Source: a virus. From it: a stretch of 26,381 bases of DNA. Below the pieces are notes generated by a model. It made no database searches. It saw only the letters and a program-made list of their open reading frames with translations, and had not been told where the DNA came from. The stretch lies in the IMG/VR virus record IMGVR_UViG_3300007351_000576, positions 1-26,381 of that record; one strand, 5' to 3'. The position numbers were made by a program, and so were the translations under genes. Below, piece after piece: positions 1 through 6,536 of this stretch (its first letter is position 1; each line of letters opens with the position of its first letter).

Positions 1-201
1 ATGATTCTCAAAATACATGGCATCACAGATCCAAAGAAACAGATGAAGACAATTCGCTTCATCAAGAAAGTCAGAGCGTTTGAAGATCTTGCTGGAAAGA
101 AAAGAGGACCGTTCAAACCTGACGATGTTCTGAGAATTCACATCGATACAGCAAATCTGTTCATACTCAAAGGCAAGGCTAAGGAGTTTGATATCGACTG
201 A
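1..201 (+). CDS. GINS B-domain-like small protein (resembles archaeal Gins51/Gins15 C-terminal domain); may be 5'-truncated by window edge
   Basis: IRFIKKVRAFEDLAGKKRGPFKPDDVLRIHIDTANLFILKGKAKE fits the remembered pattern VRILKDVPEFVGxDGKxYGPFKxGDVVxLPxxNAxxLIxxGxAE of archaeal GINS B domains. Confidence 0.65.
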   Translation: MILKIHGITDPKKQMKTIRFIKKVRAFEDLAGKKRGPFKPDDVLRIHIDTANLFILKGKAKEFDID

Positions 202-213
202 GGTGGAAACAAA

Positions 214-384
214 ATGGGAGAAGCAAAACAAATGCAAGACCGTCTGAAAGCTGACATCCAGGCATTCAGACAAGATAACACTTCCTGGAAAAGGAAGATA
301 GTGGAGAACGAAGAAAAGATTGTGGAACTTGAGAAAATAGTCGAAGCTCTACAACCTTTGTGCAAGGAGAGTGAAGTACAATGA
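214..384 (+). CDS. Small coiled-coil protein, 56 aa (not in ORF track)
   Basis: Manual translation MGEAKQMQDRLKADIQAFRQDNTSWKRKIVENEEKIVELEKIVEALQPLCKESEVQ; SD GAGGTGG at 200-206; stop overlaps the next ATG (ATGA). Confidence 0.7.
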   Translation: MGEAKQMQDRLKADIQAFRQDNTSWKRKIVENEEKIVELEKIVEALQPLCKESEVQ

Positions 385-533
385 TGAAAGATCTGAAACG
401 AAGATACGTCTATGCAGAAACATTCGATGTGATAATGACATGGGCGAAAGAAAAAGGAATCAGAGCACCAAACAGGAAAGACAATTTTCCATTCTTCCTG
501 CAGGAGTATTTGAAAGAAAAAGGAGGTGTGTAA
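381..533 (+). CDS. Small hypothetical protein, 50 aa, possibly DNA-binding (not in ORF track)
   Basis: Manual translation MMKDLKRRYVYAETFDVIMTWAKEKGIRAPNRKDNFPFFLQEYLKEKGGV; coupled to upstream stop; its 3' end carries the SD of the next gene. Confidence 0.65.
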   Translation: MMKDLKRRYVYAETFDVIMTWAKEKGIRAPNRKDNFPFFLQEYLKEKGGV

Positions 534-4493: not shown

Positions 4494-6536
4494 ATGAACA
4501 TGGAGAATGAAAACAAAGCTTTGATGGTACTCTCCAAAGTAAATGAGGGAGTAAGGCAAACAGCCACGACAATTGATTACAGTAGTGTAAACTATTCAAA
4601 ACTTGAGAATATATACAAAACAGATCAGCTTGTATTTCAAGCAATCAATATCATAAGCACATTCGCAATATCCAAAGGATATGAATACGTTCTTTCTGAA
4701 AGCACTGATGAAAATATAGAGATGAAAGATAAGATTATAACACTTGACAATTCTGTTGGACTTCCAAAACTATTGACGGATATTGTTAGACATCTGCACA
4801 TTTATGGAAATGCTTATCTTGAGATTGTTTATTCAAGAACTGATAAAAAGAAAGTTGTAGGTCTTGCATTAATTGATCCAAAGACAATCGCTTTCAAGAA
4901 GAAAAGCACAGGAGAATTGGATCTTGACGAAAGTGGGGGTATCACAGGGTTTGTTCAGACGGTAAATGCGAAGAAAATAGATCTTACCCCAGAACAAGTA
5001 ATTCATTTCAGGATAAATACGATTGCTGATTCTCTAACAGGCACGGGTGTAATTGAGCCATTAGCCAAAATTATAGAAGCTAAACGAAACATAGAGATAG
5101 GACTTGCAGAAGCAGTGTACCGTCATGGATTTCCACAATTTCATGTAAAGCTTGGAGATAGTGAACATCAACCAACAGGAGATCAAGTAACCGAAGAATC
5201 AGAGAAGTACAAGCGGATAAATTCTAAATCAGAATTCGTTACGCCCTATTATTATGACATTAAAGTATTGGAAGCTCCAGGACTAAAAGGTGGAGAAAGT
5301 TATCTTAAATATTTCATAGACCAGATTGTTGCAGGGACAGGTGTTCCTCAAACAATTCTCTTAGGAAGCGGAGAATATAGCAATAGATCATCATCAGTTT
5401 CTCAGCAAGAAAACTTCTTTTTATACATCGCAGGAATTCAGAGTCTTGTTGCAGAAACGCTGCACAAAGAATTATTCACGAAAGTAATTGGACTTGACGA
5501 ATGTCCTGTATTTATGATCTTTAATTCATTACAAACTAAGTCAGATCTTGAACTTGCACAAGAGCGAGAGATTTATCTGAAATATGGCGTTTTAACTCCT
5601 GATGAAGTCAGGCAGGATATGGGCTTAGAACCTATTTCTACACCCCCCAAGGATGAGCAACCCTTTCCTGATCAGTCAGGAGACTTTTTTTCTCAATTCC
5701 TAAATGATAAGGATTTGATGATAACTCCCGACACTGACTTTCATTTCAAAATAACAGAAGAACTTGATTTTGGAGGGGTACTCAAAGAATTATCACTTCC
5801 CATAAGGTCAAGATTCATCGCAGATCAGCAAATACTAACTCATAAGATCAATAAAGTAATGGATAAGGCAAGATCTAAGATAATCAAAGAAATAGACTCC
5901 AACACTCAAGATGAGAATCAATCAATGGCAAGAGAAGATATTCTTATTGATTCTGAACTTCTAGGACCTGAAAGAGATGCACTTGTTGCTGCCATATTCA
6001 TCGATTCTAAGAAGAAATTCAAACAAGGAATCAAACTGGGAGAGAATTTTATCAAGAAACAATATCCTCAAGTTGCAGGAATAAAAGTCAAAAGCACAAT
6101 TAACGAACAAGCTATCAGAGCTCTTGATTTACGATCCAGTCAATTGGCCAATAAAGTGAACGAGGATCTTCTTAATGCCACGCAAATAGCAATACGTGAT
6201 GGCATAATGGCCAGGAAAGGAGCAAGACAACTAAAAGAAGACATCGAGGCTATCTTTGAGAAATACGGTGGTGCTGCTGACAGATTTAACAGCATAGGAA
6301 CAAGAGCAGAACTCATCGCAAGAACAGAATTACAGAGAGCATTTATTGAGGGTAATATTCAATCTTTCAAAGAACTTGGAGTTGCTAATTTGCAAATGTC
6401 AGTAAATCCTGATGCCTGTGAGCAATGCATTGAATTAGCATCTCAAAATCAAAATACTTCTATTCATTTATCCGATGGAATTATTCCTGTTCATCCACGA
6501 TGCAGATGTGGGTGGGTTGTTAATATGATGAAGTAA
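4494..6536 (+). CDS. Portal protein fused to C-terminal Mu gpF / SPP1 gp7-like head morphogenesis domain
   Basis: Portal motifs HLHIYGNAYLEIV, VIHFRIN...GTGVIEPL, GVLTPDEVRQDMGLEP; then MuF motifs RAELIARTELQRA, CEQC, PVHPRCRC in one uninterrupted frame. Confidence 0.9.
   Translation: MNMENENKALMVLSKVNEGVRQTATTIDYSSVNYSKLENIYKTDQLVFQAINIISTFAISKGYEYVLSESTDENIEMKDKIITLDNSVGLPKLLTDIVRHLHIYGNAYLEIVYSRTDKKKVVGLALIDPKTIAFKKKSTGELDLDESGGITGFVQTVNAKKIDLTPEQVIHFRINTIADSLTGTGVIEPLAKIIEAKRNIEIGLAEAVYRHGFPQFHVKLGDSEHQPTGDQVTEESEKYKRINSKSEFVTPYYYDIKVLEAPGLKGGESYLKYFIDQIVAGTGVPQTILLGSGEYSNRSSSVSQQENFFLYIAGIQSLVAETLHKELFTKVIGLDECPVFMIFNSLQTKSDLELAQEREIYLKYGVLTPDEVRQDMGLEPISTPPKDEQPFPDQSGDFFSQFLNDKDLMITPDTDFHFKITEELDFGGVLKELSLPIRSRFIADQQILTHKINKVMDKARSKIIKEIDSNTQDENQSMAREDILIDSELLGPERDALVAAIFIDSKKKFKQGIKLGENFIKKQYPQVAGIKVKSTINEQAIRALDLRSSQLANKVNEDLLNATQIAIRDGIMARKGARQLKEDIEAIFEKYGGAADRFNSIGTRAELIARTELQRAFIEGNIQSFKELGVANLQMSVNPDACEQCIELASQNQNTSIHLSDGIIPVHPRCRCGWVVNMMK

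Follow-up and report, generated by a model that had tools for sequence, protein, structure and literature searches.

A predicted free-standing Gins51-type B-domain protein encoded in the helicase-primase module of a Woesearchaeales provirus

The first gene in the 26,381-nucleotide stretch of DNA analyzed here (the whole of which we call the window) encodes a protein of 66 amino acids that we firmly predict, from sequence comparisons and a structural model, to be a Gins51-type B domain. The gene belongs to a tailed provirus integrated in an archaeal genome, and it is translationally coupled to the viral primase gene inside a helicase-primase module. Its product probably binds host GAN, DP1N of host PolD, or both, whether as an adaptor or as a decoy.

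The window spans G000:C2:214753-241133, on a 421-kb contig of a 1.31-Mb genome that is 97.5% complete, and its upstream flank is designated L002. Three small genes stand at its start:

1..201, plus strand: predicted stand-alone Gins51-type B-domain gene, 66 aa (72 aa if read from an ATG 18 nt upstream)
214..384, plus strand: p56, 56 aa, a predicted coiled coil, always directly downstream of the B gene
381..533, plus strand: p50, 50 aa, with its ATG overlapping the stop codon of p56 (ATGA); the third of the conserved trio of small genes

A first-pass annotation had described a 66-aa ORF with a B-domain pattern, and such an ORF is indeed present: the plus-strand translation of window positions 1-201 shows the pattern ..IRFIKKV.AF....GKKRGPFKPDDV..I.I.TAN.FI.KG.A.. 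and its folded part covers approximately residues 15-62. Both an N-terminal stretch (GITDPKKQ.KT) and a C-terminal tail (FD[IL]D) are also conserved in the viral family.

Searched against Pfam, the 66-aa ORF gives one match only, to Gins51_C (PF22090), at 12.8 bits and an E-value of 0.11, which lies under the cut-off of 27. Its homologues P0006, P0007 and P0008 (63-79% identical) match the same family at 28.3, 31.8 and 36.1 bits, respectively, all over the cut-off. Residues 154-209 of the Gins51 protein encoded by the host align with the viral ORF at 36% identity (BLASTP, E 3e-7). In the reciprocal direction, the viral profile A1 matches the C-termini of cellular Gins51 frames of 200-290 aa in 168 of the 301 sampled genomes that belong to the host's order (threshold E<=1e-6; best E 3e-13). 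This tally includes eight unpublished genomes (G138, G149, G199, G222, G224, G226, G260 and G289), all with matches of the cellular type and none needed for any individual claim made here, and strong matches to short, stand-alone frames are confined to three of the 301 genomes (G000, G049 and G153). A set of 5.8 billion proteins likewise yielded 214-228-aa proteins carrying PF22090 when searched with the viral profile. Viral and cellular B domains align without gaps, with residues F, F, GPF, D, A, K and A invariant.

An AF2 model of the 66-aa protein (pLDDT 81) has a fold that fits a GINS B domain, in which a three-stranded antiparallel sheet packs on one helix accompanied by a small hairpin. 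Foldseek ranks Gins51C at the top, with a TM score of 0.70 and an rmsd of 1.2-1.4 over 52 residues against 3anw_A and 5ghr_B/D, and the same TM score against 5ghs_D. An exhaustive VIA-align search gives Z 8.6 both for 3anw_A (residues 129-186; rmsd 2.1 over 58 residues) and for 5ghr_B (rmsd 1.8 over 54 residues). Lower in the same ranking are the GINS B domain of S. solfataricus (Z 7.2), Psf2 (6.5), Sld5 (6.1) and the C-terminal domain of PriS (1zt2_A, residues 245-327; Z 6.1, rmsd 4.6). The first-pass proposal that the ORF corresponds to the C-terminal B domain of archaeal Gins51 is therefore upheld by the Pfam matches of the family, by the reciprocal profile search and by the Gins51C fold match, so that likeness to GINS B domains was found by profile and by Foldseek alike.

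Other searches returned little. A profile of the B family run against PDB sequences produced only chance SH3 matches (E >= 0.55), PHROGs holds no family for the ORF, and tblastn turned up nothing relevant to it among 50,697 deposited records of phages and viruses. In IMG/VR, the viral profile and a broad profile of cellular plus viral sequences each returned the same two contigs only.

The 66-aa ORF is a real gene under purifying selection (dN/dS ~0.1). Homologues that are 48-100% identical to it were recovered at about 20 loci from other archaeal genome bins, the two IMG/VR contigs and 11 metagenome contigs, always at the same position and in the same gene order, and the gene is intact in every locus. 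For pairs that are unsaturated at synonymous sites, dN/dS is 0.08-0.14, and distant pairs with saturated synonymous sites still retain 55-72% amino acid identity. A Shine-Dalgarno-like sequence, GGGGTG, lies 6 nt ahead of the ATG, and similar GAGGTG sites serve the adjoining genes. The shortness of the ORF and its own subthreshold Pfam score might suggest a chance frame or the non-functional relic of a gins51 gene acquired by capture, but the low dN/dS, the amino acid identity kept despite synonymous saturation, the intactness of every copy and the sequence ahead of the start codon all speak against such an origin. On this evidence of selection we exclude it, leaving it a negligible chance.

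The B-domain frame is closed upstream. It runs for 112 open codons from stop to stop and offers only two start codons, the ATG at window position 1 and the one 18 nt before it. The former overlaps the TGA of an upstream ORF of 372 aa in a different frame (ATGA), and that ORF is the primase. The flank thus holds no in-frame A domain, and the frame does not extend into a full-length gins51 gene. In the whole genome, the only match to the A domain (Sld5, PF05916) is the host Gins51 on contig C1, with none at the viral ORF. Longer proteins carrying a B domain of the viral type were, in the profile search, only cellular Gins51 proteins of 214-228 aa, and within the viral family no fusion of the B domain to a primase or helicase was found. 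The initial description of the domain as stand-alone is borne out by the missing A domain, the closed frame and the separate ORF. Because it has no A domain, the viral protein cannot be a subunit of a GINS tetramer, a conclusion that we regard as firm.

We also considered a programmed -1 frameshift joining primase and B domain. The B frame stays open for 16-142 nt across the 3′ end of the primase gene in eight loci, and in all eight the overlap contains no X_XXY_YYZ heptamer, so this arrangement was rejected.

The genes downstream of p50 encode a Dam methylase, ParB, TerL, a portal protein fused to MuF, an HK97-type capsid protein, a tape-measure protein and tail proteins, and profile matches include Terminase_6N, Phage_portal with Mu_F, Phage_capsid and PhageMin_Tail. 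The element is firmly identified as a temperate head-tailed provirus (Caudoviricetes) of a Woesearchaeales (DPANN) archaeon, one of the Woesearchaeales tailed proviruses (WATPV). The first-pass claims that the domain is virus-encoded and that the host is an archaeon both hold, since the tailed provirus is integrated in a Woesearchaeales genome.

This element has been published as QZIT01000006_pro (PMC11705971). Its gene coordinates agree exactly once 4532 is added to the window position, and the match covers the MCM gene, the primase, the B gene, p56, p50 and the tape-measure gene. Gene 6 of QZIT01000006_pro (4515-4733) is the B ORF in its 72-aa form, and Table S5 of that paper lists it as 'GINS protein', with an HHpred match to 7E15_B at 99.69 (PMC11705971). 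A homologue in QMQO01000002_pro (our locus L012) is recorded there with 7E15_B at 99.63 and the CDD label GINS_B_archaea_Gins51, and both elements are classed as WATPV (PMC11705971). The same CDD label is attached in Table S5 to gene 54 of CP090371 (35130-37790), an SF2 (XPD/Cas3-like) helicase (PMC11705971), which judging by that annotation may be a fusion of a helicase with a B domain. The word 'GINS' does not occur in the main text of that paper (0 occurrences), nor in the main text of the archaeal virus replication papers returned by our full-text literature search, and the table entry says nothing about the absent A domain, the coupling to primase or function (PMC11705971). The identity of the gene is thus already published, in a 2024 supplementary table, as a single row without comment that is its only trace within the literature searched; there its stand-alone architecture and meaning are undiscussed.

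Several observations concern the limits of the provirus. Both IMG/VR contigs (L006 and L007) and the window begin exactly at the B-domain gene, and automatic calling of provirus ends seems to leave the helicase-primase portion of the element outside. A motif of 13-15 nt, TTTATAAATGTTTCG, is present at about window position -4533 (L002 about 10468), the left end of the provirus, and three times near its right end, at window positions 41382, 47000 and 47814 (C2 coordinate = window + 214752). Measured between the copies at -4531 and 47000, the element has its published length, 51,544 bp. With the TATA-like sequence TTTATAAA inside it, the motif may serve as an att site or as a promoter. No tRNA was found at the element ends within the flanks read, and Table S5 places XerA recombinases at the right end (PMC11705971). 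Past the tail genes, L003 1392-16000 (window ~26770-41380) carries a Cdc6/Orc1-like AAA+ gene, a PD-(D/E)XK nuclease gene, a large helicase gene, an SMC-like ATPase gene and a complete DndA-E set; in the 2024 paper, the DISARM and Dnd genes of this region are assigned to the provirus (PMC11705971).

Upstream of the window lies the rest of the replication module, which includes two small ORFs in addition to the following genes:

L002 11146-11631, upstream of the helicase: DUF669-like protein of 161 aa; its nearest clusters by Atlas features are viral DUF669 proteins, which is a lead only
L002:11784-13889, upstream of the B gene: MCM-like AAA+ helicase, 701 aa; Pfam MCM at E 1.8e-3
L002:13886-15004, directly upstream of the B gene: AEP primase, 372 aa

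The primase motifs DxD, SGNKGLHxH and RxxGSxH are invariant, and the protein has weak matches to LigD_Prim-Pol and to a PHROG primase family. The modest profile matches obtained here for helicase and primase are backed by the published HHpred probabilities of 100 for both genes (PMC11705971). PDB sequence searches with the two proteins, singly or as profiles, gave nothing significant, and an AF2 model of the primase (pLDDT 52) was too poor for use. Table S5 labels the 161-aa gene 'DNA polymerase' (phrog_14876), and a protein of this length is too small for one. No real DNA polymerase is present in the Table S5 gene list of the provirus (PMC11705971), and, with no polymerase gene of its own, the provirus has to use a host polymerase.

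The order MCM-like helicase, primase, B, p56, p50 and Dam is preserved in every related locus with a flank, and in all eight loci examined the B gene overlaps the 3′ end of the primase gene in the same relative frame. p56 keeps its place in every related locus with a downstream flank and yields only coiled-coil noise in Pfam; we consider it a candidate partner of the B domain. p50, which has no Pfam match, is likewise conserved in synteny and is 69-100% identical among loci.

This intimate arrangement brings to mind the C-terminal domain of PriS (S. solfataricus PriS residues 274-329, 1ZT2), where a B-like fold also sits beside an AEP catalytic domain. That domain is fused in cis, whereas the viral B domain has an ORF of its own that overlaps the primase gene. 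The genes priS and gins51 lie next to each other or overlap in many archaea, and Swiatek and MacNeill proposed that the PriS C-terminal domain arose from a primase together with a Gins51 lacking its A domain (PMC2861644). The viral protein might accordingly be an accessory primase subunit that works in trans like the PriS domain, binding the viral AEP primase to stabilize or regulate it, with no partner from the host. The overlap of its ATG with the primase stop codon, kept in the same relative frame in eight of eight loci, would suit such a role, as would the resemblance of the locus to the proposed intermediate (PMC2861644) and the appearance of 1zt2_A (245-327, Z 6.1) in the fold search. 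Gins51C is the closer structure, however (Z 8.6 and rmsd 1.8-2.1, against Z 6.1 and rmsd 4.6 for the PriS domain), Gins51_C is the only Pfam match, and PF22090 is fused to none of 30 primase-family proteins of 364-405 aa. Furthermore, the function of the PriS domain is itself unclear (PMC2861644). The host primase also bears on this matter:

L023 1114-2487 (G000:C4): host primase, a single PriS-PriL fusion of 457 aa

No C-terminal, B-like PriS domain is detectable in this fusion protein, an hhalign comparison of it with the viral B domain was null, and no sequence likeness between PriS and the viral protein was found.

More distant relatives of the module argue in the same direction. In L069 and L071, the helicase (33-36% identical) and primase (28-33% identical) genes are directly adjacent, and a six-frame HMM search of about 2-5 kb on each side revealed no B domain, with positive controls scoring 95-141 bits. 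Because these two distant modules lack it, the B domain looks like an addition made in the present clade to a helicase-primase core that appears, from these comparisons, to be older, and the primase lineage can do without a B domain nearby. This pattern suits an accessory factor for interaction with the host more than an indispensable structural component of the primase, and we judge an exclusively primase-bound role to be unlikely.

One relative has shed most of its genes:

L009 7474-9192 (contig CAZJQL010000008.1; the same element as L044 in G049): ParB joined directly to homologues of window 25675-26708

L009 is without the 23-kb module for packaging, head and tail, and Dam, ParB and the replication module are all still there. 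It might represent a provirus in decay, or else a derivative resembling a plasmid or satellite. The structural module is lost entirely in this element and the B gene is intact, a retention that suggests the gene serves replication of the element itself.

The candidate partners of the B protein are found in the host genome. The host encodes a canonical MCM, a GAN-type protein with DHH, DHH-CID and DHHA1 domains, and both PolD subunits, DP1 and DP2; none of these is encoded by the provirus. It also encodes one PolB and a Gins51 of 212 aa with an A domain and a Gins51_C match at 59.5-62 bits. The sole PolB and PolD genes are on contigs other than that of the provirus. Three of the relevant coding regions are located as follows:

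L021:517-1926, minus strand: host GAN
L020, from 784: host PolD DP1
L004, about 1474-1647: C-terminal domain of host Gins51

A second MCM-like gene, of 415 aa, occurs in the same genome (G000:C3:77366-77917; L015 1198-2448, minus strand). It has the P-loop and lid domains only, without N-terminal or OB domains, and may belong to another mobile element.

Work on T. kodakarensis indicates how a lone B domain could engage such partners. Its isolated Gins51C (residues 131-188) is stable alone; its last strand contacts GAN, a hydrophobic face contacts DP1N, and both partners can be bound simultaneously in a ternary complex (PMC9023282). The viral protein shares with T. kodakarensis Gins51C (3ANW, 5GHR/5GHS, 7E15; PF22090) the fold, the size and the motif F..F...GPF..D....A..LI.KG.A. 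Its last strand, the GAN contact in Gins51C, retains the A-charged-E-hydrophobic pattern, and the equivalent of V148, a DP1N contact, is an invariant Phe in the viral family. By eye, the start of host DP1 resembles the DP1N helix (..LIKACLEK..FLSPD..), and it has no Pfam match.

Prediction of a complex between the viral B protein (alignment A1) and host GAN (17-sequence alignment A2) gave a score of 0.33 (runs of 0.47, 0.00 and 0.33), with 0.01 for the best control. This is weak support: 58 out of 80 solved complexes clear the mark it passed, and so do 2 out of 110 mismatched pairs; at scores of 0.60 or less, the mark is reached by only 7 of the 80 solved complexes together with both passing mismatched pairs. 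Agreement between runs is at least 0% of contacts, with a partner pLDDT of at least 66. Since a like complex has been solved (5GHS, 7E15), the pass may stem from the model's memory, and the prediction raises the odds of GAN binding only a little.

Against cellular Gins51, the viral protein differs in lacking an A domain, in being virus-encoded and in its coupling to a viral primase. Identity to the cellular B domains of related archaea is 29-43%, the viral protein has an N-terminal stretch of its own, and its FDID tail is new relative to cellular B domains. Several conserved positions are altered: the Y preceding GPF is replaced by R, L or I, and the LP before the helix by IH, TH or TD. Changes at these conserved positions could, as far as the alignments go, reflect a different partner. 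We also considered an argument against DP1N binding based on Asp49, an invariant residue that corresponds to V170 of T. kodakarensis Gins51, where the V170D mutation abolishes DP1N binding. This argument was dropped because cellular Gins51 proteins of the order also carry D or E at this position, with K in the host protein.

As to the suggestion in the first-pass annotation that a free B domain could recruit or sequester host replisome parts, the host does encode GAN and DP1, and the complex prediction gives weak support; the mechanism, hijack or decoy, is plausible but unproven. We give nearly even chances to an adaptor role, in which the free B domain would link host GAN and PolD to the provirus helicase-primase. 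The domain would dock host GAN and PolD DP1, tie them as a small adaptor to the viral enzymes, and thereby give a provirus without a polymerase access to the host replicase. Its attachment to the viral helicase or primase might be made by the N-terminal stretch, by the C-terminal FDID tail or by the p56 and p50 miniproteins. A helicase-B-domain fusion such as the CP090371 annotation hints at would, if genuine, favor this role.

The same binding capacity, supported by the Gins51C-GAN-DP1N complex (PMC9023282) and by the GAN prediction (0.33 against 0.01), would serve equally for inhibition. As a decoy, the free B domain would bind host GAN and/or DP1N and nothing viral, compete with host Gins51 B domains, and uncouple GAN and PolD from the CMG-like helicase so that replication of the host chromosome would shut down during lytic growth. 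The absence of an A domain, which denies the protein entry into GINS, agrees with that idea. But the gene resides in the replication module, coupled to primase, and not among genes for host takeover or lysis; its retention in L009 without the structural module fits a part in the element's own replication; and a virus with no polymerase would lose by keeping PolD from every helicase. We therefore consider a pure decoy improbable and prefer the adaptor role because of the gene's position, its coupling to primase and the lack of a polymerase in the element.

The fold family extends to the eukaryotic CMG, where the B domains of Psf1, Sld5 and Psf2 (8ouw, 6xtx, 2eho and 7pfo in the Foldseek and VIA-align searches) share the fold with the viral protein at only 8-24% identity. 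The Psf1 B domain docks Cdc45 and the N-terminus of Pol epsilon Dpb2 (discussion in PMC9023282). The viral locus, for its part, is relevant to the proposal that GINS and the PriS C-terminal domain are linked in evolution. To our knowledge, a eukaryotic B domain is always found within a two-domain GINS subunit.

Archaeal viruses carry genes for MCM, primase, PCNA or Cdc6, and we know of no account of how the host replicase is brought in by a virus that bears a helicase and lacks a polymerase. In archaea, GAN and PolD are tied to the helicase through a hub, the Gins51 B domain. A virus that keeps this hub alone offers a small, soluble and testable handle on replicase recruitment, with all candidate partners of the 66-residue protein encoded in one 1.3-Mb genome. 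It is possible, though we think it rather doubtful, that the protein replaces the whole of GINS with a single domain and would bridge the viral helicase and primase to host PolD (through DP1N) and GAN in a hybrid replisome, that the locus represents a living stage of 'primase plus A-less Gins51', and that B domains have been captured recurrently. If this were true, and if helicase-B-domain fusions on other archaeal elements were real, B-domain capture would be a recurrent viral way of plugging into the archaeal replisome.
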